NCBI GenBank assembly: GCA_046727415.1
Contig: JBKPCO010000035.1
Span: 1,554-65,553 of the forward strand
Length of the DNA stretch: 64,000 nucleotides
Direction: 5' to 3'
Origin: Candidatus Methylomirabilota bacterium
Lineage (GTDB): Bacteria > Methylomirabilota > Methylomirabilia > Rokubacteriales > CSP1-6
In this document: piece by piece, positions 7,535 to 56,686 of the stretch
How the letters are laid out: each line of letters starts with the position of its first letter
Position numbering within the stretch: the first letter of the stretch is position 1
Program-made: the position numbers and the translations under genes
Notes under the pieces: model-generated
The model's input: the letters and a program-made list of their open reading frames with translations, nothing else
What the model was told of the DNA's origin: nothing
Databases searched by the model: none

Positions 7535-9127
7535 GTGTTCGACCTCAAGATCGAGGGCGCACAGGTCATCGACGGCACCGGGCGGCCCGGAGCCCGGGCG
7601 GACGTGGGCATCAAGGACGACCGCATCGCGGCGGTCGGCGACCTTCACCGCGAGGCCGCGGGCAGCAACCTGCACGCGTCGGGCAAGGTCGTGGCGCCCG
7701 GGTTCATCGACATGCACTCGCACTCGGACTGGCGACTCTGGGAAAATCGCCGTGCGGAATCGAAGGTGAGGCAGGGCGTGACCACCGAGGTGGTCGGCAA
7801 CTGCGGATTCTCGCCGGCGCCGGTGTCCGACGAGTTCCTCGACGATCTGCGCGGGTTCGCACTCCACGTGCCAGCGGGCATGGACTTTCGCTGGCGTTCC
7901 GTCGGCGACTACCTCCGGGCGTTCGATTCGAGCGGCACGGCGCTCAACGTGATCCAGCTCATTGGTCACGGCACGCTGCGCGTGGCGGTCATGGGCTTCG
8001 CGCGGCGCCAGCCGACACCGGCTGAGCTTCGGCGCATGCAGAAGCTGCTCGCCGATGGGATCGAGGACGGTGCGTGGGGCCTCTCCACCGGGCTGATCTA
8101 CCCGCCGGGCTCATTTGCCACGACCGACGAGATCGTGGAGCTCGCCGCCGTCGCGGGTCGGCATCGCGGCTTCTACGCGAGCCACATCCGGGGGGAGGGG
8201 GCAACCCTGCTGGACGCCGTTCAGGAGGCGATCCACGTGGGCCGGGAGGGCGACCTGCCGGTGCAGATCAGTCATGTTAAGGCGGCCGGACGGCCGAACT
8301 GGGGTAAGGTGGCCGATGTGCTCGCGCTCGTCGATGCCGCGCGGGACGAGGGACTCGACGTTATGGCCGACGTCTACCCGTACACTGCGTCCAGTACCAT
8401 GTTACGGGCGCTCCTGCCGGACTGGGCGCTCGAGGGCGGGATTGATGCCATGCTCGGACGCCTCGCCGATCCCGACGCCCGCGCGCGCATCCGCCGCGAC
8501 ATCGAGTCGCCGCCGACTGGCCAGAGCCTCGTCGACCGCATCGGGTGGGAGAACGTCATGATCGCGTCCGCCGTCAAGCGCCGCGACGCCGAGGGAAAGC
8601 GCCTATCCGAGATCGCGGCCGCCGGCGGTGTGGACGCGGTCGACGCCGCGCTGGAGCTGCTCGAGGCCGAGGGCGGAAAGGGCTCGATGATCCTCTTTCA
8701 GCTCGACGAGCGCGATCTCAGGCGGGCGCTCGTGCACGAGGCCGTCATGATCGGCTCCGACGGTTCGGCGCTCGCGCCCGGCGGCCTGGCCGGGGGCAAG
8801 CCGCATCCGCGGAGCTACGGCACCTTTCCGCGTGTCCTCGGGGAATACGCGCGCGAGGAGCGCGTGCTGACGCTGGCCCAGGCGGTTCACAAGATGACGG
8901 GTCTTCCGGCGCGCCGTCTCGGGCTCAAGGATCGGGGCGTCATCGCGGTCGGCGCGCGGGCCGACCTCGTGGTGTTCGATGCGCGCCGGGTCGGCGACCG
9001 CGCCACTTACCAGGAGCCCCACCAGTACCCGTCGGGGATCGAGCACGTCCTCGTCAACGGCAGCTTCGTTATCAAGGACGGCCAGCACACCGGGAGCCTT
9101 CCCGGGAGACTCCTGACACCGGCATGA
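7535..9127 (+). CDS. N-acyl-D-amino-acid deacylase (D-aminoacylase) family amidohydrolase
   Basis: 530 aa. 'VAPGFIDMHSHSD' HxH metal motif and the overall D-aminoacylase layout. GTG 7535 lies 3 nt after the amidase stop. Confidence 0.85.
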   Translation: MFDLKIEGAQVIDGTGRPGARADVGIKDDRIAAVGDLHREAAGSNLHASGKVVAPGFIDMHSHSDWRLWENRRAESKVRQGVTTEVVGNCGFSPAPVSDEFLDDLRGFALHVPAGMDFRWRSVGDYLRAFDSSGTALNVIQLIGHGTLRVAVMGFARRQPTPAELRRMQKLLADGIEDGAWGLSTGLIYPPGSFATTDEIVELAAVAGRHRGFYASHIRGEGATLLDAVQEAIHVGREGDLPVQISHVKAAGRPNWGKVADVLALVDAARDEGLDVMADVYPYTASSTMLRALLPDWALEGGIDAMLGRLADPDARARIRRDIESPPTGQSLVDRIGWENVMIASAVKRRDAEGKRLSEIAAAGGVDAVDAALELLEAEGGKGSMILFQLDERDLRRALVHEAVMIGSDGSALAPGGLAGGKPHPRSYGTFPRVLGEYAREERVLTLAQAVHKMTGLPARRLGLKDRGVIAVGARADLVVFDARRVGDRATYQEPHQYPSGIEHVLVNGSFVIKDGQHTGSLPGRLLTPA

Positions 9128-11660
9128 AGAGCGGCCTGGCGTCGCGTGATCTGCTGGCGCCGATCTCCGCGGCCTCGTCGGTGACGGATGGGCTCCGCGA
9201 GTCCCTGCGCCGGCTGGTGGCCGTCACCGGCTCGACCGCCGGCGTCGTCACTCTCCCATTACAAGATGAGGCGCCGATCGTCGTCGCGCGCGGCAGCAGC
9301 ACATCCCTTCCACTCCGGCGATGGCTGACCGACGTCACGGCCGTGCCCGCGCGCGGGACGCGGCTCACCCGTGTCGTGCCGCCGGGCTCCCCCCGGAGCC
9401 GCCCGGCGGCTCTCTTGAGGGCTCCACTCGATGCGCGCGGCCGGCGAGTCGGCGAGCTGGCCCTCCTGGGCACGGTCGGGCGCCTGACGGCGTCGGTCTT
9501 GCCGGCGAGCTTTCCCCGCGAGCTCGGGGCGGCCATCGATCGTCGGTGCGATCTCGAGCGCCTCGCCCTCCGCGCGGAAGTCGTCAACGAGCTCACGACC
9601 CTGCTGTCGTCGCCACACACGCTCGACGAGGTGTTCGCCACCTTCGCCGGGGGCATTGCGCGCCTCGTGCGATTCGACTCGATCAGCATCGCGCTGCTCG
9701 ACACCGAGCGCGGCACGTTCGAGAGCTTCGACCTGGCGGCCGGCGCGCTTCGCGGATCTCCGGCCCCAGGAACCTCGACGCCACTCGAGGGCACCGTCCT
9801 GGAGCGCGTGGTGGCCACCGGCGTCCCCGTGCGCATCGACGATCTCGAGCGCGACGAGGCGCCGGAAGTGAGCCGGCGCGTTTTCCTCGAGCGCGGCTAC
9901 CGCGCCGTGACGTTCGTGCCCCTATCGTCGGGCACCGTGTTCGGCGCCGTCGCGCTCGCCACCACCCGGCCCGGCGCGCTGGGGGATGGCGACCTCGAGG
10001 TGGTCGCCGAGCTCGCGCGCCCGCTGGCCCTCGGGATCGAGCGGTGGCGCCTCGCCGAGGAGAGCAGCCGGCGGGCGCGAGAAACTCACGCGCTCCTCGA
10101 GGCAGGCCGGGCGGTCACCGCCAGCCTCGACGTGAACCGGACGATCCGGGTCCTGCTGGAAGAGGCACGCGGCGTCCTCGGCGTCGACTCGTGCGGACTG
10201 ATGACGATCGATCCCGCGACGGGCGAGCTCGTGATGGCCGCGAGCCTCGACGTACCGGCCGCCCTGTGGCCGACGATCCGGCTGCAGCAGGGCCAGGGGG
10301 TCACGGGTCTCGCGGTGCAGCAGCGACGTCCCATGCAGAGCCCCGACCTGTCGGTCGACGCCCGCGCGATGTATCCCCACGTGGCCAGCGGCAGCGGCTA
10401 TCGCTCGATGCTCGTGGCGCCTTTGCTCCGGGGCGACCACGCGATCGGTGCGATCACCGTCTTGCGGCACGGCGTCCACGAGTTCTCGGCGCATGAGGAG
10501 GAGCTCCTGGTGGCGCTGGCGAGCCAGGCGGCGATTGCGCTGGAGCACGCCCGCCTCTACACCGAGCTGGAGGGGATGGTCGCCGACCGGACCCAGGAGC
10601 TCGACGCCCAGAAGCGGTTCGTCGAGGTGGTGCTGGAGACGATGCCGATCGGCGTCCTCGTGCTCGACGGTCAGCTCAACGTGGTCAGGATCAACCCGGC
10701 CGGTGCCCGCGCCCTGGCTTGCGCCTCCGACGCTCACGGTCCGCTCGCCCAGTTCCTGCCCCACGACAAGGGCGCGGCGGTGCTGGAGTTCCTCGGGGCG
10801 GCCTTCAACAGCCGGCGCGGCGGCTCGGTCGAGGAGGAAATGATCATCGCCGGGGACTCCAGGATCTTCCGGTTCACCGTGGCACCCGTCGCGCCGTCAA
10901 GCGATCCGGGCGCCTATGCGGTCACCCTGGTGGAGGACATCACGCACGCGAAGGGGCTCGAGCGCCAGATGCTCCTCACCGAGCGGCTCACGACGGCCGG
11001 CCGGCTTGCCGCCGGGGTCGCCCACGAGTTGAACAATCCGCTCGCGACGATCGCCGGGTGCGCCGAGTCGCTGCAGGGGCAGCTGGCGTCGGTCGATCAG
11101 CGGGCGATGACGGAGTACGCCGACTTTCGTCGTTACCTCGGCCTGATCGAGGAGGAGGCGTACCGCTGCAAGGAGATCACCGGGAGCTTGCTCCAGTTCG
11201 TGCGTGACCCGGGCAGCCGGCGGGAGCCCACCGACCTGAATGCGGTCGTGCTCAAGACGGCCGAGCTCCTGACGCGCCAGTCACGCTTCGCCGCCAGCCA
11301 TGTGGCGATCGACCTCGACCCCGCGCTGCCGCCGGTCGCGGTGAACGAGGGCCAGCTGCGGCAGGTGTGCCTCGGGCTCGCGTCCAACGCGCTGGAGGCG
11401 ATGGAGGGACGGGGTGCCTTGACGATCCGTTCGCGGGTGGGCCACGGCACGGTCGAGATCGAGCTCGAGGACGAGGGCCCCGGGATCCCCGAGGAGAACC
11501 TCGCCCGCATCTTCCATCCGTTCTTCACGACCAAGCCGCCTGGACAGGGCACCGGCCTCGGACTCGCGATCGCGCAGGGCATCGTGACCGATCACGGCGG
11601 TAGGATCGAGGTCGCCTCGGTGGTCGGCAGGGGCAGCACCTTCCGCGTGGTGCTCCCGCT

Positions 11661-11664
<4 letters not shown>
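9124..11664 (+). CDS. Soluble multi-GAF/PAS sensor histidine kinase
   Basis: No TM segment seen. About three GAF-like regions, a PAS region, H-box '[11 protein letters not shown]' and HATPase G-box 'GTGLGLAIA'. ATG 9124 overlaps the TGA of the aminoacylase gene (ATGA). The ORF-track start 8545 is an out-of-context extension. Confidence 0.85.
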
Positions 11665-13019
<1,355 letters not shown>

Positions 13020-20788: not shown

Positions 20789-20804
20789 CGGCACAGTGGT
20801 TGCA
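20789..20804 (+). promoter_or_regulatory. Sigma-54-type -24/-12 promoter upstream of the DksA/TraR gene
   Basis: cGGCACagtggTTGCA matches TGGCAC-N5-TTGCW except for the first base, with exact spacing. It lies 54 nt upstream of ATG 20858, which has an AGGAGG RBS. Confidence 0.55.
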
Positions 20805-20857: not shown

Positions 20858-21262
20858 ATGGAAACGATTCGCGAGCGACTAGAGGAAGATCTTAGAACGG
20901 CAGTCACCCGGCTTCGCCAGATGGGCGGAGCGGTCGCTGTCGAGGAGATGCCGGGAGCGATCGGCGATAACTCGCCCTTCGCCGACGAGGTCGATGAAAT
21001 CCAGGCTAACGAGCGCCGTGAGATCGGCTTCGCGACGCGTGAGCTGCTGGTTGACCGCGTCAACCGGCTGTCCGCGGCGCTGGACCGTCTCCGGGACGGC
21101 GACTACGGCACCTGCGTGGAGTGCGAGGAGCCGATTTCTCCTGCTCGCCTCCGGGCTCTTCCGGAGGTCACGACCTGCGTTCGGTGCCAGGACCGGATCG
21201 AGCGCATGGGGCGCCACGTCGAGCGGGAAGAGGAAGATCTCGAGACGGCCGACGACGACTAA
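20858..21262 (+). CDS. DksA/TraR-family C4 zinc-finger protein
   Basis: Coiled-coil N-terminus plus 'CVECEEPISPARLRALPEVTTCVRC' (CxxC-N17-CxxC). Confidence 0.9.
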   Translation: METIRERLEEDLRTAVTRLRQMGGAVAVEEMPGAIGDNSPFADEVDEIQANERREIGFATRELLVDRVNRLSAALDRLRDGDYGTCVECEEPISPARLRALPEVTTCVRCQDRIERMGRHVEREEEDLETADDD

Positions 21263-47268: not shown

Positions 47269-48141
47269 CTACTCCAGGCGATAGAGCGCGTGCGCGTTCT
47301 GGTAGGCGACGCGCTCGGCCACGTCCGGTCTCAGCTCGCCGAGAATTCGCCGGGTCCAGACGAAGAGGCGATCCAGCATCGCCGGCTCGAAGAGCCGCGC
47401 CGCCCAGACGTCGACGCCGATCAAGAAGCGATCGGGCATCTTTTCGACGAGCGCCCTCCAGCCGGGATCGAGCGGACCGGTCTCCGTCGCAAGCGCGGGC
47501 GTCCGCTGGAAGTGCATGCCGGACAGATCCACACGGAGATTGGGATTCCGCATCAGGAGCCGGTCGAGACGGCCGGGCGGCCCCTCACCACCGTGGGCGA
47601 GCACGATCGTCGCCTTGCGGTGGGCGGCCAGGGCGCGATCGAGCGCGGTCTCGGCTGCGTCGGTCAGCTCGTAGTGAATGACGATCGGGACGCCGAACTT
47701 TCCGACGACGTCGAGGATCCGACCGAATGCCGCGTTGTTGGGATCGCGATCGATCAGCTGGCGTCCGACCTGACGCATGTGAACCTCGCCGATCACCCGT
47801 GGTCGTCCGCGCTCGAGCTGGACCTCGAGCTGGCTCGCCGCGGCGTCCGTGGTTGGGTCGGGCAGGGGCAGGCCGGCCACCACGCGATCGGGATACTTCT
47901 TGCTTGCCGCCGTCAACCAGATCGCGTCCTCCTTCTGGCGGCCTCCGACGCCCAGGAGCACGACCTTGGCGACGTTGTGTCGCTTCATCGCGGCGACGTA
48001 CGCATCGATCGCGGTGCCATTCGGCAGGTGCGAGTGGGCGTCGATGAGCGGCCCGCCATAGTCGGCGGCGCGGGCCGTCGGGGCGAGGCCGATCAGCACG
48101 GCGATCAAAGCGCCCGCGACGACGCCGAACGCGTTGGTCAT
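47269..48141 (-). CDS. Amidohydrolase-2 (TIM-barrel metal hydrolase) with N-terminal signal/anchor
   Basis: 'LIDAHSHLP' HxH motif. The N-terminus 'MTNAFGVVAGALIAVLIGLAPTARA' is signal-like. Confidence 0.75.
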   Translation of the reverse strand: MTNAFGVVAGALIAVLIGLAPTARAADYGGPLIDAHSHLPNGTAIDAYVAAMKRHNVAKVVLLGVGGRQKEDAIWLTAASKKYPDRVVAGLPLPDPTTDAAASQLEVQLERGRPRVIGEVHMRQVGRQLIDRDPNNAAFGRILDVVGKFGVPIVIHYELTDAAETALDRALAAHRKATIVLAHGGEGPPGRLDRLLMRNPNLRVDLSGMHFQRTPALATETGPLDPGWRALVEKMPDRFLIGVDVWAARLFEPAMLDRLFVWTRRILGELRPDVAERVAYQNAHALYRLE

Positions 48142-49322
48142 ACGATGCCCTCGCGGCTCAGGTTCTCCAGCTCGATGTCGTCGATGCCGATCTCGCCGTA
48201 CACCTCACGGTTGTGGGCGCCGAGGGCCGGTCCCGACGAACGGATCGTCGCGGGAGTCTCGGCCAGGCGCGGCGTCGGTGCCGTCATCCGGACGGAGCCC
48301 AAGTCGGCGTCCGGGACGTCGACGAGGATGCCGCGGCCGGCGACGTGCGGGTCCTTGGCGATGTCGGCGCTGTCGTAGACGGGACACGCGGTGAGGTTCG
48401 CGGTCTCGAAGAGCCGCATCATCTCGTCGAGGGTCCGGGAGCCGATGGCCCGCGTGAGCGCCGCGTCGACCAGGTCGTTGTGGGCGACTCGCGCATCGTT
48501 GGTGGCGAACCGGCGGTCCGCCAGGAGGTCGCGCAGGCCCAGGCCTTCGAAGAGCGCGGCGGCCGAGGCGGGTGTCGAGGCCGACAGCGCCACCCACTTG
48601 CCCTCGCGCGTCCGGTAAGTCCCGCGAGGGCTCGCGTTGTCCGAGCTGTTACCGCGGCGCACGGCCACGGTCCCGTCGAGCGCGTACTCGGCGGCCGCCG
48701 GGCCCAGCACCGACAGGAGCGGCTCGTAGAGCGAGACGTCGATCACCTGGCCGCGTCCGGAGACATGGTCGCGATGACGCAGAGCCGCCAAAACCGCGGT
48801 CGTCGCCGACAGGGCCGCGATCATGTCGGCCATCGGGAACGAGGGGAGCGTCGGCGGGCCGTCGGCCTCGCCCGTCGCCGCGGCGAATCCGCTCATCGCT
48901 TCGACCATCGTGCCGAAGCCCGGCCGATCCCGATAGGGCCCGTCCTGACCCCAGCCGGAAACTCGGGCGAAGACCAGGCGCGGGTTGTCGGCGGACAGGA
49001 CATCCCAGCCGAGCCCCCACTTCTCGAAGGTACCCGGCAAGAAGTTCTCGACGAGGACGTCGGCGCCGCGACACAGCCGGCGCAGGAGCGCCTGGCCCCT
49101 CGGATGGGCGAGGTTCAGGGTGACCGAGCGCTTGCCGCGCGCGTACACCTTCCACCAGAGCTCGCCCCGATCGCGAAGCCATGTGCGCAGGGGATCGCCG
49201 CCGCGCGGGTTTTCGACCTTGATGACGTCGGCGCCGTGGTCGGCGAGGATCGTCGCGAGCACGCCGCCGGCGATCAGCCGAGAGCAGTCGACGACCCGGA
49301 GCCCGGCGAGCGCTCCGCTCAC
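48138..49322 (-). CDS. Family III CoA-transferase (CaiB/BaiF)
   Basis: 'LAGLRVVDCSRLIAGGVLATILADHGADVIKVE'. GTG 49322 overlaps the TGA of the small upstream ORF. The ORF-track extension to 49436 has ~46% GC3 by hand count. Confidence 0.85.
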   Translation of the reverse strand: MSGALAGLRVVDCSRLIAGGVLATILADHGADVIKVENPRGGDPLRTWLRDRGELWWKVYARGKRSVTLNLAHPRGQALLRRLCRGADVLVENFLPGTFEKWGLGWDVLSADNPRLVFARVSGWGQDGPYRDRPGFGTMVEAMSGFAAATGEADGPPTLPSFPMADMIAALSATTAVLAALRHRDHVSGRGQVIDVSLYEPLLSVLGPAAAEYALDGTVAVRRGNSSDNASPRGTYRTREGKWVALSASTPASAAALFEGLGLRDLLADRRFATNDARVAHNDLVDAALTRAIGSRTLDEMMRLFETANLTACPVYDSADIAKDPHVAGRGILVDVPDADLGSVRMTAPTPRLAETPATIRSSGPALGAHNREVYGEIGIDDIELENLSREGIV

Positions 49323-49477
49323 TGGCCCGGGGTTTTCTTGAAGTGCTGCGCCAGCGCGTCCATCATGCGGGCCAGAGCCTCGTTCTCGGTGCGCCCGGTC
49401 GTCTCGACGCCCCAATTCACGGCAACCGCGATCCACTCGCCCAGCTCGTTACGATGGACTTCGACCTCGAATTGCAT
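49319..49477 (-). CDS. HicB/DUF1902-like small protein (52 aa), absent from ORF track
   Basis: Hand translation: MQFEVEVHRNELGEWIAVAVNWGVETTGRTENEALARMMDALAQHFKKTPGQ. High GC3, GTGA coupling to the CoA-transferase start. The beta-beta-beta-alpha pattern resembles UPF0150/HicB-like antitoxin N-domains. Confidence 0.5.
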   Translation of the reverse strand: MQFEVEVHRNELGEWIAVAVNWGVETTGRTENEALARMMDALAQHFKKTPGQ

Positions 49478-49505
49478 GCCCGACACTTTACCTCAGAGCG
49501 GGATC

Positions 49506-49928
49506 CTAGTGGGCGCGAGGCAGGACGGGATGGCCCGCGGCGGCGTCGGCGATCGTGTGGTCGTTGTCGGCGGGCACCGCGCCGCTGACCCCGACGGCGC
49601 CCACGATGCGCCCGTCCTCTACCAACGGCACCGCGCCCCGGCCGAAGACGAATTGGTAGTCGCCGAGGGTCGCGACGTTGTCGGCGAAGAGCTGGCGCTT
49701 GCCGAATCGATCCTCGAGATCGAGGGTGGTGGAGTGGAAAGCCGCCGCGGCGTTGGCCTTGGCGCGGGCGATCTCTGGCGTGACCCAGAGCGCGCCGTCC
49801 ATCCGGTCGCAGACGATCAGATGTCCGGCGTCGTCGACGACCGCGATCGCGACCTTGAAGCCGAGCGCCTGCGCCTGGGCGACGCCGCGCTCGACACAGG
49901 CGCGAGCCCGATCGCGGGTGAGCGCCAC
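49506..49928 (-). CDS. GlcG/HbpS-like (DUF336) heme-binding protein
   Basis: 'AIAVVDDAGHLI' and 'GAVGVSG'. GTG 49928 lies 1 nt after the Rieske gene stop. Confidence 0.8.
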   Translation of the reverse strand: MALTRDRARACVERGVAQAQALGFKVAIAVVDDAGHLIVCDRMDGALWVTPEIARAKANAAAAFHSTTLDLEDRFGKRQLFADNVATLGDYQFVFGRGAVPLVEDGRIVGAVGVSGAVPADNDHTIADAAAGHPVLPRAH

Positions 49929-49929
49929 C

Positions 49930-50238
49930 TCAGGCGATCTCCACCCAGATGTCGCCGCCTTCGATCGTGACGGGATACGTGTCGACACGGCCGCCGCGCG
50001 AAGGCATCACGCACTCGCCGGAGCGCAGGTCGAACATCCAGCCGTGCCAGGGACACGCGAGCCGCGTGCCGGTCAACCGCCCCTCGCTGAGGGGCCCGCC
50101 CTGATGCGTGCACTCGTCGCTGCACGCGAACACCTCGTCACGGACCCTCACCAGTACGACGCGGGCGCCGTTGGTCTCGACCAGCTTGAGCTGGCCCGCC
50201 GTCAGGTCGTCGAGCCGGCCGACGTGTTGGCGGCTCAC
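49930..50238 (-). CDS. Rieske [2Fe-2S] ferredoxin-type protein
   Basis: 102 aa with 'CTHQGGPL' (CxH) and 'CPWHGWMF' (CxxH). Confidence 0.85.
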   Translation of the reverse strand: MSRQHVGRLDDLTAGQLKLVETNGARVVLVRVRDEVFACSDECTHQGGPLSEGRLTGTRLACPWHGWMFDLRSGECVMPSRGGRVDTYPVTIEGGDIWVEIA

Positions 50239-50915
50239 ACCTCGTCCTTCACGACGAAGGCGCGGTAGAGGCCGGTCATGTACTGCCAGCGCATCTCGGT
50301 GGCCTGCCGAACCGCGTCGACCGCCTCCGCCTGCCGCGCCGGACTCGTGCAGTGACGCTCGACGATCTGGTAGCCGCGCTCGCCGTGGACCTCGTCGGCC
50401 TCAATGTGGATCGCGAAGAACTCCACTTCGTGGTCGGTGAAGCCGTAGTGCGTCTTGAGCGGGGGCAGGTTGCGCTGGTAGATGCCCGGCACCTGGGACT
50501 CGAGCCCGACCAGGAGCCCGGCCGCCGCGACGTGGAAGGGCTGGTGTGACATCTCGAAGCACCACGCGGTGAGGCCGCGAGTGGTCGGGAGCTGCTGCTT
50601 GGACTCCACCTCGGCCCGCGACACGCCGCACGCCTCGGCGAAGCGGATCAGCAGATCGACGTGCTTGGTGCCGGACTCTTCCTCGATGATGTTCTCGAGC
50701 AGGAAATCGCGCGCGTCGGGGTCGGGACACTCGCCGTACACCGTGGCGCACCAGCGCGGGAACTGCGAGACGTACTGATGGTGCTGGGCCGCCCAGGCGC
50801 CGAGCTGAGCGCGCGTCAGCTCGCCCTTCACCCACTTCTCGGTGAACGGATTCAGGCGGCTGTGGCGGGCGCTGACAGCGGCTTCGAGCTGGGCACGGAA
50901 CGGGCTCTTGCTCAT
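50235..50915 (-). CDS. CADD/PqqC-like heme-oxygenase-fold protein (possible diiron oxidase)
   Basis: Collinear with PqqC/CADD (TENA_THI-4/PQQC family). It contains 'EEESGTKH' (E-x6-H), 'GLES' and 'HIEADEVH' (H-x3-D-x2-H). ATG 50915 has a GGAGGA RBS (ATG 50927 is an alternative). ATGA overlap with the Rieske gene. Confidence 0.75.
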   Translation of the reverse strand: MSKSPFRAQLEAAVSARHSRLNPFTEKWVKGELTRAQLGAWAAQHHQYVSQFPRWCATVYGECPDPDARDFLLENIIEEESGTKHVDLLIRFAEACGVSRAEVESKQQLPTTRGLTAWCFEMSHQPFHVAAAGLLVGLESQVPGIYQRNLPPLKTHYGFTDHEVEFFAIHIEADEVHGERGYQIVERHCTSPARQAEAVDAVRQATEMRWQYMTGLYRAFVVKDEV

Positions 50916-51031
50916 CGGCTCCTCCATCGGTGCGTCGAACAGCGATGTCGCTCGGGCGCGATCGAGGAACCTAATGACACATGAGCGGGAGACAAGTCAA
51001 GCACGGGAGGGAGAACGGAGCGACGAACGAC

Positions 51032-52090
51032 CTAGAGCGCGGAGACGCGGTTGCGACCCTGGTCCTTGGCGTCGCGCAGGGCGCGCTGCGCCGCCGCCAG
51101 CAGGTCGTCGGCCGACACGGCGTCGGCGGGCAGCCCGGCCACGCCGAAGCTCGCAGTGACCGTGCCGTACGCGAAGGGATGACTCTCGATGACGGACCGG
51201 ATCCGCTGGGCGTAGGTGGCGGCGCCGGCCTTGGGGGTGTTGGCGAGCAGGGCGGCGAACTCGTCGCCGTCCAGGCGGGCGATGATCGTGAAGCTCCGAG
51301 AGTGCCGGAGGAGGAGGCGCGATACCTCCCGGAGCACCTCGTCGCCGGCCGCCTGACCGTGCTCGGCGGTGATCGGCTTGAAGCAATCCACGTTCACGAC
51401 CACGAGCGAGAGCGGATGCCCGAACCGGGTATGGCGCTTGACCTCCTCGTCGATCCGCAGGCCGAAGTACCGGCGGTTGTAGAGCTCGGTCAGGCTGTCC
51501 TTGAACGAGATGTTCTCGAGCCGGGCGTTGCGGATGGCGACCGCCGCGTGGGCGGCGAGGGCCCGGATGAGCTTCTCGTGATCCCGGTGGAAGGCGACGG
51601 TGGCACCCGAGTCGTCGACCGCATTCAGGAGCTCGAGCACCCCGATGATGCTACCGGTCAGATCTTGCAGGGGGACGGCGAGCACCGAGCGCGTGGCGTA
51701 GTCGCTGGCGACGTCGAACCGCTCGTTGAAGGCGCGGGTCTGATGCACGCCGATTGCGTGCGCGTCGGCGACGTTGACCACCTCGCCGGTCTTCGCCACG
51801 TGGCCGGCGAGACTTGGCTCGCTGAGCCGCAGGGGCTCGGCCTCGAATCGCTGCTGCAGCCCGGGCCGGGCCAGCTTCCGCTCGATGAGGTCGTTCTGCA
51901 CCACCGCGAACCGGAGCCGGTCGCCATCGCGGAGAAAGAGCGTCCCGGCCTCGGCGCGCGTGAATCGCCGCGCCGCCTCGAGGATGCGGTCGAGCAGGGC
52001 GTAGAGATCGCGCTCGCTGGCGACGGCGAGCCCGATCTCGAGGAGCTCGTCGAGCACTTGCTCGCGGTCGGCGGCGGTGTGGGAGCTCAC
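51032..52090 (-). CDS. GAF-domain protein with degenerate GGDEF domain (DGDEF)
   Basis: GAF N-terminus. The GGDEF-fold C-terminus reads 'RLDGDEF' (nt 51257-51271), and 'FKPITAEHG' replaces the usual 'FKxxND..G'. Confidence 0.85.
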   Translation of the reverse strand: MSSHTAADREQVLDELLEIGLAVASERDLYALLDRILEAARRFTRAEAGTLFLRDGDRLRFAVVQNDLIERKLARPGLQQRFEAEPLRLSEPSLAGHVAKTGEVVNVADAHAIGVHQTRAFNERFDVASDYATRSVLAVPLQDLTGSIIGVLELLNAVDDSGATVAFHRDHEKLIRALAAHAAVAIRNARLENISFKDSLTELYNRRYFGLRIDEEVKRHTRFGHPLSLVVVNVDCFKPITAEHGQAAGDEVLREVSRLLLRHSRSFTIIARLDGDEFAALLANTPKAGAATYAQRIRSVIESHPFAYGTVTASFGVAGLPADAVSADDLLAAAQRALRDAKDQGRNRVSAL

Positions 52091-53121
52091 GGCGCGGCCG
52101 CCCGGTTCGGGCCCAGACGCTTGGCTTCGTAGAGGGCCCGATCGGCGGCGACGATGAGGTCATCGACGGTTGTCGCGTCTTCCGGCAGGCTCGCGATCCC
52201 CAGAGTGGCGGTGACCGGGTGTGCGGACCGGTTTTGCTCGATGACGCCCCGGATGCGCTCCGCGTACGTGAGGCCGCCGGCCTTGGTCGTGTTTACCAGG
52301 ATGATCGCGAACTCGTCGCCGCCGTACCGGGTCACAATGCTGAAGCTCCGCGAATGCTTGACCAGGAGCTGGGCCACCTCGCGCAGCACTTCGTCCCCGG
52401 CACGGTGGCCGAACCGGTCGTTCACCTCCTTGAAGTGATCCAGGTCCATCAGCGCCAGCGAGAGCGGCTCGCCGAAGCGGCAGTGGCGCTTGAACTCCTC
52501 CTCCATGCGGATCGTGAAGTAGCGACGGTTGTAGACGTCGGTCAACGCGTCCTTGAAGGAGAGGTCCTCGAGCCGGGCGTTGCGGAGTGCGACGGCAGCC
52601 TGGGAGGCGAGCGACCGCACCAGCGATTCGTATTGCGAGTCGAACGGCACGACGCGGCCGCGGTCGAGCGCGTTGATCAGTTCGAGCACGCCGAGGATAT
52701 TGTGCGAGGGATCCTGGAGCGGGACCACCAGGATCGACTGCGTGCGATAGCTGAGGCGCGCGTCGATACGCTGATCGAAGGCATACGGCCGGTCCGGCGG
52801 GATCATGTACGTATCGTGCAGGTTGAGGATATCGCCGGTGAGCGCGACGTGGCCGGCGAGGCTCAGCTCACGCAGATGCAGGGGCTCGGCCTTGAGACGG
52901 CGACGCATCTCCTCCTCGCCCAGCTCCTTGGCGAGCCGGTCGTTCTGCACGACGGAGAAGCGCAGCAGGTCACCCTCGCGGAGGAACAGCGTGCCGGCCT
53001 CGGCCCGTGTGAAGCGGCGCGCTTCGGTCAGGATGCGCTCGAGCAACGTGCCCAGGTCCTGCTCGCTGGTCAACGTGATCCCGATCTGTACCAGCTCCCG
53101 GAACGCCTGGGTCAGGTTCAA
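52087..53121 (-). CDS. GAF-domain diguanylate cyclase (canonical GGDEF)
   Basis: GAF N-terminus, 'DLDHFKEVNDRFGH' and 'RYGGDEF' (nt 52309-52323). TTG 53121 lies 10 nt after AGGAGG. 4-nt overlap with the downstream paralogue. Confidence 0.9.
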   Translation of the reverse strand: MNLTQAFRELVQIGITLTSEQDLGTLLERILTEARRFTRAEAGTLFLREGDLLRFSVVQNDRLAKELGEEEMRRRLKAEPLHLRELSLAGHVALTGDILNLHDTYMIPPDRPYAFDQRIDARLSYRTQSILVVPLQDPSHNILGVLELINALDRGRVVPFDSQYESLVRSLASQAAVALRNARLEDLSFKDALTDVYNRRYFTIRMEEEFKRHCRFGEPLSLALMDLDHFKEVNDRFGHRAGDEVLREVAQLLVKHSRSFSIVTRYGGDEFAIILVNTTKAGGLTYAERIRGVIEQNRSAHPVTATLGIASLPEDATTVDDLIVAADRALYEAKRLGPNRAAAP

Positions 53122-53172
53122 CTGCGTGATACCTCCTGGCTAGTGAGGTCAGACTAGCACGCCGCCCAACTC

Positions 53173-53188
53173 AGCAATCCCAGTGCCA
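53173..53188 (-). promoter_or_regulatory. Consensus sigma-54 -24/-12 promoter (minus strand) for the GAF-GGDEF operon
   Basis: The minus strand reads TGGCACtgggaTTGCT, a full match to TGGCAC-N5-TTGCW. It lies ~50 nt upstream of TTG 53121. Confidence 0.7.
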
Positions 53189-53217
53189 CAAACCACAAAG
53201 GGGAAATCAACCTGCAG

Positions 53218-53229
53218 TTTGTCGACAAA
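53218..53229. promoter_or_regulatory. Perfect 12-bp palindrome TTTGTCGACAAA
   Basis: Read directly from the sequence, 30 bp upstream of the minus-strand -24 element. Candidate protein-binding site. Confidence 0.3.
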
Positions 53230-53460
53230 TTAGCCAGATAGGCTCATTCCTAACACACGAAAGCGGCCTTCCGGTCACTCTCTGAGCATGGAAATTCTTA
53301 CCAATGGCCAATCGTTTGCCGGTCTGACAGCTGGGTCCGGTGACCGCATGGCCAGCGGTAGGTTCCTGGCGTGTCAGAGTGCGCATCAGCGGGTCGAGAG
53401 GCTCGGCGCACTTTCCCGCAACACTCCGGATTCGTTACTGGAAGGCGATCTCCGCGCCGC

Positions 53461-53476
53461 TGGCACATCAGTTGCA
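53461..53476 (+). promoter_or_regulatory. Consensus sigma-54 -24/-12 promoter (plus strand) for the 590-aa protein gene
   Basis: TGGCACatcagTTGCA, a full match with exact spacing. It ends 26 nt upstream of ATG 53502. Confidence 0.7.
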
Positions 53477-53501
53477 TAAGGCCGCGTCGGGACAGGCTTG
53501 C

Positions 53502-55274
53502 ATGAAACTGACTTTCAAGCGGCGCGACGTCAAGGATCTTCAGCAGCTCGCCACGCTGGTCGCGGAGAACGTCGACGCGATCGAAACCGGGCTCAAGATC
53601 ATTGGGTCGAATCTGAATCTCGGTCGGGCCAGCATCGAGCTCGTCGCGCTCGACGCCGCGGACACGCCGGTGCTGGTCACGCTGGGCCTCACCGCCGACG
53701 ACACGATGCTCCTGAGGGCGCTCGAGGCCTATGCCTGGTGCCTCGACTATCCAGAGTCGCTGCAGAAGCTCGTCCCCGCCTCGAGACGGCCGGAGTGGCC
53801 ACCGCGAGTCGTCTTCGTCGCCGAGCGGCTCCTCGAGTCGTTCCTGAGGAAGATGCGGTTGCTCAAGTTCTCCACGGTCGACTTCTTCGAGTTCCGCTAC
53901 GTCGAGGCCAACGGCACCACGGGTTTCTACCTCGACCGGGCCGACTGGGATCCAAACAGCGCCGGCTCACTGGACGACGAGCGAGCGGACGAGCGACCGG
54001 AACGCCCTGAGCGCGTCGAGCGCCCGGCTCCTCGGCTTGGCCCGCCCACCCGTCATGTCGAGCCGGTCCATGTCGAGCCGGTCGCCGAGCAGGAGCCGGA
54101 GGAACTGGAAGCACAGGAGGAACCCGAAGAGGAGCGCGAGGTCGTCGTGCACGAAGAGCCAGTGGCTGTCGAGGAGCCGACGATCGTCATGCTCCACGAG
54201 CCCAAGCCTGCGCCCCGAGTGGCACCGCCGCCTCGACTGGAAACCGCACCGCGACCGGCACCCCGTGTGGAACCTGCGCCCAGGGTGGAGCCTCCGCGCA
54301 CAGTGCAGCCGCCGCCTCCGCCGCCCCGAGTGGATCCCAGCAAGGTCGCCGCGCCGGCGCCCAGGGTTGTCTCACCGGTAGCGTCCAACACCGGCCGCGA
54401 ACCAGCGGACGGCCACGTGGTCCTCAAGGGTTTGCGCGTGCCGACCGAGACGCCGCGAGGCCAGCACCCGCGCGACCTTCCGAACGTTCCGGTGAAGGAA
54501 GCGCCGCCAAAGCCCCAGCGCGAGAGCGTCGCACCGGCGGCCTCTACCAGGTCCGCACGCGTCGGGACGAGCACTCCGAGCACGATCGATCCACGTATTC
54601 CGCGTATTCCGGCGAAGGGCGCTCCAGTCGGGAACGGATCGAGGAACGACACCCCAAAGATCGACACCCCGAGGATCGACACGCCGAAGATCGACGTGCC
54701 GAAGCCTGAAGCTCCCAAGAGCGACCTCGCTCCGACCTGGAGAAAGTTCCTCGACAGGCTGACCGGCACGTTCGACGCGCGGCCGGCGACGCCGGCTCCG
54801 GAGCCGTTCGCCACCGATCTCCACCTCCAGCCCGACGAGGTGGCTCCCGACGAGGTCATCGACGAATCCCAGGATTCGATGACCGAGCTGTCGGAGCAGC
54901 AGCAGAGCGCCCTGAAGGGTCTCACACTCCCGGACAACGGCGAGCTCGCGCCCCAGTGGCGCCAGTTCCTCGACCATCCGACGCTCGACGAGGCGAAGAT
55001 CGCGGTCGTCCGGGGATACCTGCAGCGCGAGTTCCCGCTGTGCACCGTCTACGACTTCCACGATTTCCAGCGCAACGCGCAGGTGTTCCAGCTCCAGGAC
55101 AACCACGGCAAGGTCACGCAGCTCATCACGATGACCGCGGAGTTCTTCGACTCGCATCGCGACCTGGAGATCCGCGCGTGGATCGAGAAGCACAAGGTCG
55201 CGCATGCGGCGCGGCAGGCAGGTCAGGCCGGCGTGCTCGTCTCGCAGGCCGGTCTCCAGATCGAAAAGAGCTAG
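53502..55274 (+). CDS. Hypothetical 590-aa protein: NucS/DUF91-like N-domain (degenerate), long Pro-rich repeat region, unknown C-domain
   Basis: ATG 53502 chosen because the sigma-54 element lies inside the ORF-track extension (53340..). The N-terminal ~150 aa follow the NucS C-domain pattern ('VAENVDAIETGLKIIGSNL..IELVALDAADTPVLVTLG'). The middle ~330 aa are P/E/R/V-rich. Confidence 0.75.
   Translation: MKLTFKRRDVKDLQQLATLVAENVDAIETGLKIIGSNLNLGRASIELVALDAADTPVLVTLGLTADDTMLLRALEAYAWCLDYPESLQKLVPASRRPEWPPRVVFVAERLLESFLRKMRLLKFSTVDFFEFRYVEANGTTGFYLDRADWDPNSAGSLDDERADERPERPERVERPAPRLGPPTRHVEPVHVEPVAEQEPEELEAQEEPEEEREVVVHEEPVAVEEPTIVMLHEPKPAPRVAPPPRLETAPRPAPRVEPAPRVEPPRTVQPPPPPPRVDPSKVAAPAPRVVSPVASNTGREPADGHVVLKGLRVPTETPRGQHPRDLPNVPVKEAPPKPQRESVAPAASTRSARVGTSTPSTIDPRIPRIPAKGAPVGNGSRNDTPKIDTPRIDTPKIDVPKPEAPKSDLAPTWRKFLDRLTGTFDARPATPAPEPFATDLHLQPDEVAPDEVIDESQDSMTELSEQQQSALKGLTLPDNGELAPQWRQFLDHPTLDEAKIAVVRGYLQREFPLCTVYDFHDFQRNAQVFQLQDNHGKVTQLITMTAEFFDSHRDLEIRAWIEKHKVAHAARQAGQAGVLVSQAGLQIEKS
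54054..54083 (+). repeat. Exact in-frame tandem 15-mer (CATGTCGAGCCGGTC x2)
   Basis: Read directly from the sequence. Encodes HVEPV-HVEPV. Confidence 0.9.
54648..54707 (+). repeat. In-frame tandem 15-nt repeats (3 good units plus 1 degenerate)
   Basis: GACACCCCAAAGATC / GACACCCCGAGGATC / GACACGCCGAAGATC / GACGTGCCGAAGCCT, encoding DTPKI-DTPRI-DTPKI-DVPKP. Confidence 0.85.
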
Positions 55275-55723
55275 CCCGCTCGCTCCGAGTCGTCCCAGCG
55301 CCAGGACATCGCCCGGTCGGGCGAGATGCGAATGACGGTCGCGGTCGCCCGGTCCAACCCCATGACGCGATACTGCGCGTACTTGTCGCGGAGGAGGTCG
55401 ATGGCCCCAACGCGCTCGGGGCCGTCGGGGAGCACGTCGGCGCGCCCCTGGACGATCACCCAGGCCAGCCGCGTCCATTCCTCGTCGTAGCGGTCGACGA
55501 GCAGCGAGACGCGCGAATTCTCGGCGATGTTCCGAACGCGCCGGAGGCCACCCGCCGGGATCCGCTTGGGCTTGGCGTCGATTGCCGAAAAGCACGAGCG
55601 ACCGTCAAAGACGTAGCACACCGGGACGACGAGAGGCTGACCCGTCCGGTCCGCCGTGCCGAGCCGCGCGACCCGACCCTCGCGCAAGAGCTCGGCGGCG
55701 AACGCCGGAAGATCGAGGCTCAC
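55271..55723 (-). CDS. PPOX-class F420-dependent enzyme (Rv0121/TIGR03668-like)
   Basis: 'RVARLGT...PLVVPVCYVF', 'AIDAKPK', 'LRRVRNI' and 'VSLLVDRYDEEW' follow the pattern of that family. Confidence 0.8.
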   Translation of the reverse strand: MSLDLPAFAAELLREGRVARLGTADRTGQPLVVPVCYVFDGRSCFSAIDAKPKRIPAGGLRRVRNIAENSRVSLLVDRYDEEWTRLAWVIVQGRADVLPDGPERVGAIDLLRDKYAQYRVMGLDRATATVIRISPDRAMSWRWDDSERAG

Positions 55724-55747
55724 GGGCTCAGCGGTGCGGACCGGCGC

Positions 55748-56686
55748 TCACGCGAAGATGGATTCGGGCAGGAACGCCGAGACGATCCAGTTGGGCGCGT
55801 CGACGATCTCGCTGATCTTCAGGTCGACGGCCACGCTGCAGAGGATGTACGCCTCCTCGCGGCTCAGCCCGCGCTCGGTCACCAGGTGATCGATCATGTA
55901 GCGGATCGCCTGCTGCGAGCTGGCGAAGAGATCGGGACCGTGGGCGGTCGTCACGAAGCAGGGCCCACGGTCGGCCGCGGAGACGATCGGCCCGGAGGTC
56001 CTGAACTGCGGCTCCTTCAGCTCGCGCCCGCGCGCGAGCCCGAAGCGGAGCGTGACCGTGCCCATCATCTCGACCGCGGTGACGCAGACCTCACCGTCAC
56101 CCTGCGTCGCGTGCGCGTCGCCGACGCTGAACAGGGCGCCGTCCATCCACACCGGCAGATACAGCGTCGTCCCGGCGGTGAGGTGCTTGACGTCCATGTT
56201 GCCGCCGTTCTTGCGGGGCGGCATGGTGCTGTGGGCGCCGGGCTCGTCGAGCGCCACGCCCATGACTCCAGGAAATGGCGCGATCGGCACCGCGATGCCC
56301 CGTCCCGTGCGCGCGTGCTTACCGTCGGTGAGGTCCCAGATCGTCAGGTGCGGCTTTGAGAATTCGGCTTCCGGCAGAAGACCGCGTCCCGGGCGGATGG
56401 CCGTCCAACCGAACGGAGCGGCCGGCTTGACGTCCAGGATCTCGACCGTCAGCACGTCGCCGCGCCGGGCGCCTCTGACGGCGACCGGCCCGGTCAGCGG
56501 GTGGCCGCGGAACGGTCCGCGCCCGAGCACGTCGTCGTGCGTCGAGGACGGGGAGTAATAGCCGTCGGCGGCGTCGCGCGTGTCGAAGATCACGGTGTCG
56601 CCCGCATCGATCTCGAGCCGCGGCGCGATCGAGTTGTCCCAGGCCCGGTGAACGATGCTCCGATCGAGGTGATGCGTGGTCGCCAT
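55748..56686 (-). CDS. Acetamidase/formamidase-family amidohydrolase
   Basis: 312 aa. 'HPLTGPV', 'GGNMDVKHL' and 'GDAHATQGDGEV' are typical of the FmdA/AmdA family. Confidence 0.85.
   Translation of the reverse strand: MATTHHLDRSIVHRAWDNSIAPRLEIDAGDTVIFDTRDAADGYYSPSSTHDDVLGRGPFRGHPLTGPVAVRGARRGDVLTVEILDVKPAAPFGWTAIRPGRGLLPEAEFSKPHLTIWDLTDGKHARTGRGIAVPIAPFPGVMGVALDEPGAHSTMPPRKNGGNMDVKHLTAGTTLYLPVWMDGALFSVGDAHATQGDGEVCVTAVEMMGTVTLRFGLARGRELKEPQFRTSGPIVSAADRGPCFVTTAHGPDLFASSQQAIRYMIDHLVTERGLSREEAYILCSVAVDLKISEIVDAPNWIVSAFLPESIFA

Follow-up and report, generated by a model that had tools for sequence, protein, structure and literature searches.

Two conserved, outward-facing sigma-54-type promoter motifs between a GAF-GGDEF gene pair and the gene for a 590-residue protein in Rokubacteria

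The window, by which we mean the whole stretch of DNA analysed (64,000 nt), derives from a member of the Rokubacteria/Methylomirabilota, an uncultured soil phylum. The locus considered here is an intergenic region of 380 bp (positions 53122-53501), from which genes lead away on both sides. To the left, on the minus strand, lies a gene for a GAF-GGDEF protein of 344 aa (gene 1, 52087-53121; Pfam GAF, 2.5e-14, and GGDEF, 1.9e-42), which begins with TTG, retains an intact GGDEF motif and is 77-94% identical in relatives. It is followed on the same strand by a second GAF-GGDEF gene of 352 aa (gene 2, 51032-52090), recognised from Pfam and from its translation. Genes 1 and 2 share 4 nt at the junction of stop and start and are translationally coupled, and the tandem arrangement is conserved. 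Gene 2 carries DGDEF in place of GGDEF and, judged by this motif, may be a degenerate, non-catalytic paralogue. In the more distant relatives (the related loci that we number L018-L022 and L033), three tandem GAF-GGDEF copies are found.

Beyond the GAF-GGDEF pair, and on the same strand, come genes for a CADD/PqqC-like haem-oxygenase-fold protein (50235-50927), a Rieske ferredoxin (49930-50238), an HbpS-like protein (49506-49988) and a family III CoA-transferase (48138-49436). The order of these genes (48138-50927) is kept in L032, whilst in L033 they lie apart from the GGDEF genes, and membership of the leftward operon is probably not obligatory for them.

To the right of the intergenic region, on the plus strand, is the gene for a protein of 590 aa (53502-55274). 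Its start is the ATG at 53502, as the N-terminal sequence MKLTFKRRE is conserved in all aligned homologues, and for the same reason a longer, GTG-initiated open reading frame from 53340 is not taken to be the gene. The next gene, encoding a PNPOx-like protein (55271-55723), is convergent, and the 590-aa gene is therefore considered monocistronic. The protein had no Pfam or NCBIfam match, and an exact-sequence look-up found nothing. It has 182 homologues, all of them unnamed, and those with a named origin come from Candidatus Rokuibacteriota/Methylomirabilota metagenome-assembled genomes; the family is seen in Rokubacteria only. The protein consists of an N-terminal domain, a long, disordered Pro/Glu-rich linker, two conserved APxWRKFLD motifs and a C-terminal domain. 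The N-terminal 150 residues are predicted by AF2 with a pLDDT of 86 and resemble the NucS/EndoMS-like PD-(D/E)xK nuclease fold (Foldseek E ∼1e-5); a search with the sequence of this domain against the PDB gave nothing significant, and the NucS resemblance comes from the fold search only. As read from the alignment, the strand that follows an invariant Asp51 is VLVTLGL, with no E-x-K, and the predicted NucS-like domain thus appears to be without that catalytic motif. The C-terminal 115 residues are also predicted to form a confident fold (AF2, pLDDT 85), for which no structural match was found in the PDB.

The intergenic region contains two matches to the −24/−12 promoter consensus of sigma-54, TGGCAC-N5-TTGCW (TGGCACNNNNNTTGCW). 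The first, which we call P+, is TGGCACATCAGTTGCA on the plus strand at 53461-53476, and is separated by 25 nt from the ATG of the 590-aa gene. The second, P-, is TGGCACTGGGATTGCT on the minus strand at 53173-53188, and is separated by 51 nt from the TTG start of GAF-GGDEF gene 1 at 53121, ahead of which there is an AGGAGG at 53132-53137 (minus strand). Both match the consensus at every specified position, with the exact GG-N10-GC spacing, and each is oriented towards its flanking gene. The two start codons are confirmed by conserved N-termini, placing both motifs in non-coding DNA. The GC content falls to 0.525-0.63 over 53100-53500, compared with ∼0.65-0.73 in the flanks. In all these respects the sequence-only reading, which had described two full-consensus sites placed back to back in a 380-bp region of low GC, one just before the ATG at 53502 and the other ∼50 nt before a TTG start with an AGGAGG, agrees with the sequence: strings, coordinates, orientations, the size of the region and the dip in GC were all recovered.

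The first point to note is that such matches are rare. The two sites are the sole exact matches in the 64-kb window, where 0.00 were expected from 100 dinucleotide-preserving shuffles; not one of the 100 shuffled sequences contained even a single exact match. When the pattern was loosened to GGCAC-N5-TTGC, three matches were found against 0.55 expected, and all three are intergenic and face a gene.

A scan of a genome collection gave 22 related loci from Rokubacteria/Methylomirabilota. In every locus with enough flanking sequence the same order is seen, with two to three tandem GAF-GGDEF genes, an intergenic region and the 590-aa gene. In the ∼190 kb of these loci there are 19 exact matches to the 16-mer pattern, all of them at the two orthologous positions. 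That the motifs are chance occurrences in an AT-richer spacer, a reading with nothing further in its favour than the general frequency of short motifs, is thus excluded for practical purposes, because the shuffles were empty and every match in the related loci, with both sites orthologous in ∼20 genomes, lies where the promoters should be.

When one or two mismatches are allowed, 19 of 20 related loci have P+ with its canonical 5-nt spacer, and in the remaining one, L012, the same elements are separated by 6 nt. P- lies ∼300-330 nt upstream of the ATG of the 590-aa gene. Its position is covered by 19 related loci (L003, where the contig ends too early, was left out of this count), and 18 of them retain both GG and GC; the exception is L022, where the site has degenerated to TAGCAT...TCGCG. 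A position matrix built from 20 P+ sites shows TGGCA and TTGC (GTTGC) to be invariant, with the five spacer positions varying freely. In the corresponding matrix of 19 P- sites the spacer is again free and TTGC constant, and within TGGCA only the C varies, in one site; in the 18 related loci with an intact P- site, TGG.A and TTGCT do not vary. P+ has a mean identity to the consensus of 0.91 and P- one of 0.83, compared with 0.57 for the intergenic region as a whole, and both motifs have been kept although the 590-aa proteins of the relatives are only 39-90% identical to that of the window. Judged from the alignments, this is how sigma-54 recognition elements should look if purifying selection maintains them. 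As the motifs sit at orthologous positions and their invariant bases are exactly the positions contacted by sigma-54, phylogenetic footprinting over ∼20 genomes strongly supports the earlier proposal of two outward-facing sigma-54 promoters, one for the GAF-GGDEF pair and one for the 590-aa gene.

The window itself also holds part of the machinery that such promoters need. A gene at 11661-13019 (plus strand) encodes an NtrC-type bacterial enhancer-binding protein (bEBP) with the domain order REC-AAA+-HTH_8 (Pfam Sigma54_activat, 1.5e-66) and a GAFTGA loop, the only one in the window. Its start is overlapped by the stop of a gene for a histidine kinase of 1039 aa (8545-11664, plus strand), which has two GAF domains, PAS, HisKA and HATPase_c, and the two form a translationally coupled NtrC/AtoC-type two-component system (8545-13019). 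The sequence-only reading had pointed to an AAA+ enhancer-binding protein with an intact GAFTGA here, and this protein is genuine and is of the NtrC type, coupled to a sensor kinase. Since a bEBP with GAFTGA is present, sigma-54 is presumably in use in this genome, and the conservation of the promoter motifs likewise points indirectly to an rpoN gene. No link was found between this bEBP and the 53122-53501 locus. Across 31 loci there was no GAFTGA or RpoN box near the locus, nor was there an RpoN box in the window; in 22 relatives neither a bEBP nor an RpoN box was encoded within 4 kb of the locus, and in L032 and L033 none was found within 10 kb. L033 does encode a PAS-GAF protein of 1044 aa close to the locus, but this protein and the 1039-aa kinase are not orthologues.

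It is conceivable that TGGCA...TTGC is the site of some other DNA-binding protein, or that only one of the two is a working promoter, with transcription coming from promoters of another sigma class. The atypically short leader implied for P+ would fit this explanation, as would the fact that the promoter types used by Rokubacteria are uncharacterised. However, the invariant positions correspond base for base to the −24/−12 elements of sigma-54, with GG-N10-GC fixed, in two independent sites; the sites are asymmetric, unlike those of typical dimeric regulators; a promoter and terminator scan of 49800-55900 found no sigma-70-like promoter; and the presence of a bEBP in the window points to the use of sigma-54. 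We therefore regard this explanation as very improbable, and take P+ and P- to be sigma-54 promoters in what follows.

Other kinds of feature were also sought in the region. No Rfam family was found at E ≤ 1 in 52900-53700. A conserved RNA element was rejected, as RNAalifold applied to 19 inter-promoter regions paired only the invariant TGRCA/TGTCA arms, at −2.6 kcal/mol and with no covariation. A small open reading frame of 63 aa (53288-53479) had no Pfam match and its frame is broken by indels in relatives; since these indels are not multiples of three, there is no conserved open reading frame in the intergenic region.

Between the two promoters the related loci share several blocks of conserved sequence. 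A central block at 53277-53322, with the consensus CTCTGACCAAG-AAATTCT-A-C--TGAC-AAT--TTTG-CG and the window sequence CTCTGAGCATGGAAATTCTTACCAATGGCCAATCGTTTGCCG, matches the consensus with a mean identity of 0.73, whereas the region as a whole averages 0.57. Within the block is a dyad, GACAAAT-N-ATTTGTC, which is perfect in L008, L009, L010 and L012. To the right of it, at 53349-53381, is a second conserved dyad in which TG(G/A)CAG is followed after ∼15 nt by (C)GTGTCA..TG; GTGTCA is present in 18 of 19 regions, and its conserved partner TG(G/A)CAG is at 53349-53355 in the window. These two blocks are our candidates for upstream activating sequences (UAS), the central block for P- and the right-hand dyad for P+. 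A search of the rest of the 64-kb window for the central dyad gave nothing above chance; the same was true of TGACA-N7-TGTCR, and nothing hinted that the bEBP regulates its own operon.

Closer to each promoter there are further segments at nearly fixed distances. On the P+ side, GCAAC...GGATTCGTT (53418-53436) has conserved columns and is A/T-rich in most relatives, with the GCAAC segment 43-45 bp from the GG of P+ in all loci. A site for DNA bending would be expected at this position; no canonical IHF match was seen on inspection. On the P- side, a segment that is likewise A/T-rich in most relatives (53214-53239) is held at 37-39 bp from the GG of P-, and within it only AAATT (53227-53231; AAAT(T/C) across relatives) and GAT (53237-53239) are conserved.

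The two symmetric elements that the sequence-only reading had singled out between the promoters are altered by this comparison. The 12-bp palindrome TTTGTCGACAAA is indeed present at 53218-53229, in the P--proximal segment, but relatives do not preserve its symmetry, keeping only AAAT(T/C) and the adjacent GAT. Likewise, both arms of the 7-bp inverted pair, TCTGACA at 53323-53329 and TGTCAGA at 53372-53378, are present in the window, but the left arm falls in a lineage-specific insertion, a segment that most relatives lack. The right arm shares bases with the near-invariant GTGTCA.

Given two promoters and two candidate blocks, the arrangement could be read in either of two ways. One is that both promoters are real and depend on the same enhancer and the same activator, as in the zraP/zraSR pair of E. 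coli, the whole forming a single co-regulated unit. Consistent with this, a TGACA/TGTCA core recurs in the central block and in the right-hand dyad (TGACCA, TGACAA, TTTGTC, GTGACA and GTGTCA), the P- and P+ starts are ∼150 and ∼175 bp, respectively, from the central dyad, and the separation of the two promoters stays within 248-282 bp. The spacings nevertheless argue against it. The central block is rigidly placed only with respect to P-, at 125-127 bp from its GG in 18 of 20 loci, whereas 122-157 bp separate it from P+. For the GTGTCA dyad, in turn, phasing is seen only with P+: the dyad is 78-79 bp from the GG of P+ in 12 loci, 82 bp in two and 88-91 bp in seven, so that the main spacing classes (78 versus ∼89 bp) differ by approximately one helical turn. 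Between the blocks the linker varies from 27 to 48 bp. As the spacing of each block is constrained to one promoter only and the length of the linker is variable, the comparison suggests that each promoter has an upstream block of its own at an enhancer-like distance, and that a flexible linker connects the two modules. We consider a single shared enhancer the less probable arrangement. The core common to both blocks means that a single activator family could act at both modules.

The mechanism that we favour, and which we consider highly probable on the basis of the sequence comparisons, has sigma-54 holoenzyme at both promoter cores and activators at 53277-53322 and 53349-53381. RNA polymerase containing sigma-54 would bind 53173-53188 on the minus strand and 53461-53476 on the plus strand, forming closed complexes. 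Sigma-54 closed complexes do not open on their own. One or more AAA+ enhancer-binding proteins, encoded elsewhere in the genome, would bind the conserved upstream blocks, with the central block (53277-53322) serving P- and the TG(G/A)CAG...GTGTCA dyad (53349-53381) serving P+. The DNA would loop over the A/T-rich proximal segments to bring activator and polymerase into contact, and ATP would be used to open each promoter. Leftward transcription would then start near 53162 and run into the two GAF-GGDEF genes with a 5′UTR of ∼41 nt, whilst rightward transcription would start near 53487 and produce the monocistronic mRNA of the 590-aa gene. The predicted output is signal-dependent synthesis of GAF-regulated diguanylate cyclases and of the 590-aa protein. 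The GAF-GGDEF pair and the 590-aa gene may form one regulon, as the sequence-only reading proposed, although the spacing points to two regulatory modules. What the sequences show directly is the motifs, their orientation, their conservation throughout the phylum and the constraints on their spacing; occupancy by sigma-54, the start sites, the assignment of the enhancer blocks and the identity of the activator are inferred.

One consequence of the position of P+ concerns the length of its transcript leader. Across the related loci the −12 element of P+ is 14-27 nt ahead of the conserved start codon, and the implied 5′UTR is therefore unusually short, at 3-16 nt. In the window 25 nt lie between the element and the ATG; most relatives have 21-25 nt there, and L021 and L022 (3986-4001) have only 14 nt. 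If transcription starts ∼11 nt past the element, the 5′UTR would be ∼15 nt in the window, ∼11 nt in most relatives and 3-4 nt in L021 and L022, and in these last two a near-leaderless mRNA would be made from a sigma-54 promoter.

Several well-characterised systems share parts of this arrangement. In the E. coli zra system, the activator gene, zraR, is part of one operon of the pair, and both promoters are activated from a single set of ZraR sites. RpoN holoenzyme binding has been reported in the zraP<>zraS spacer (PMC8743547). The present locus is similar in that a short intergenic region contains a pair of outward-facing sigma-54 promoters and, between them, (here candidate) enhancer sites. 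It differs in that its flanks are GAF-GGDEF and 590-aa genes, with no bEBP within 4-10 kb in any relative, and in that the spacing favours two upstream modules, even if both have the TGACA/TGTCA core. The E. coli hyc and hyp operons are divergent, sigma-54-dependent and activated by FhlA, whose sites are known; their cargo is the structural and maturation genes of formate hydrogenlyase. Here too there are divergent sigma-54-dependent operons with (candidate) upstream activating sequences in a shared intergenic region, but the cargo consists of putative diguanylate cyclases and the 590-aa protein.

At the level of the individual promoter, the closest comparison is with glnAp2 and nifH, which are enhancer-dependent sigma-54 promoters that combine an IHF bend with UAS at about −100 to −150. 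The promoters described here resemble them in the TGGCAC-N5-TTGCW core, in the conserved dyad blocks ∼80-150 bp upstream and in the A/T-rich segments at fixed distance. In contrast, the dyads GACAAAT-N-ATTTGTC and TGRCAG-N15-GTGTCA do not match the sites of NtrC or of NifA (TGT-N10-ACA), no canonical IHF consensus was seen, and the leader implied for P+ is ∼3-16 nt.

The nature of the genes also invites comparison with circuits that connect sigma-54 and c-di-GMP, such as those of FleQ and VpsR; in the FleQ, VpsR and BerB systems it is the bEBP that senses c-di-GMP. BerB has been reported to link sigma-54-dependent transcription with c-di-GMP signalling (PMC5552954). The locus is similar in tying sigma-54-dependent transcription to c-di-GMP signalling, but differs in that putative c-di-GMP synthase genes would themselves be the sigma-54 targets.

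Thus, the locus provides a well-supported computational case of sigma-54-dependent transcription in the Rokubacteria/Methylomirabilota; a search of a library of papers for Rokubacteria together with sigma-54 or RpoN found nothing. It ties c-di-GMP synthase genes and a phylum-specific 590-aa protein to enhancer-dependent control, and the promoter cores and candidate enhancer blocks are precisely delimited. It is a new instance of an ordinary kind of bacterial control region, and not a new sigma-54 mechanism. A bolder proposal would be a phylum-wide module leading from sigma-54 to c-di-GMP, in which the 590-aa protein is a new partner or effector of the GAF-GGDEF cyclases and is made from a near-leaderless sigma-54 transcript; we think it unlikely that all of this holds.

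Two further observations concern the surroundings of these promoters. In the subclade L005-L012 the leader downstream of P- is 94-122 nt (for example L006, 3579-3699), compared with 51 nt in the window, and contains a conserved segment, GGCGGACACGGTGGCGGGCGC, which is absent from the window. In several of these loci the segment can be read as an upstream open reading frame of 20 aa (MR.AD.VAGA...RR*), the stop of which overlaps the TTG start of the first GGDEF gene; as L009 and L010 do not have the ATG, the segment may instead be an RNA element.

The second observation is of a third, near-consensus sigma-54-type site elsewhere in the window, CGGCACAGTGGTTGCA at 20789-20804 on the plus strand. 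It lies 53 nt upstream of a gene for a DksA/TraR-family zinc-finger protein of 134 aa (20858-21262, plus strand) with an AGGAGG ribosome-binding site, and in eight other contigs that were retrieved for this gene the upstream sequence is 93-100% identical, which is too close for the conservation of the site to be read from it. With CGGCACAGTGGTTGCA in this position, the DksA-like RNA-polymerase-binding factor may also be under sigma-54 control.
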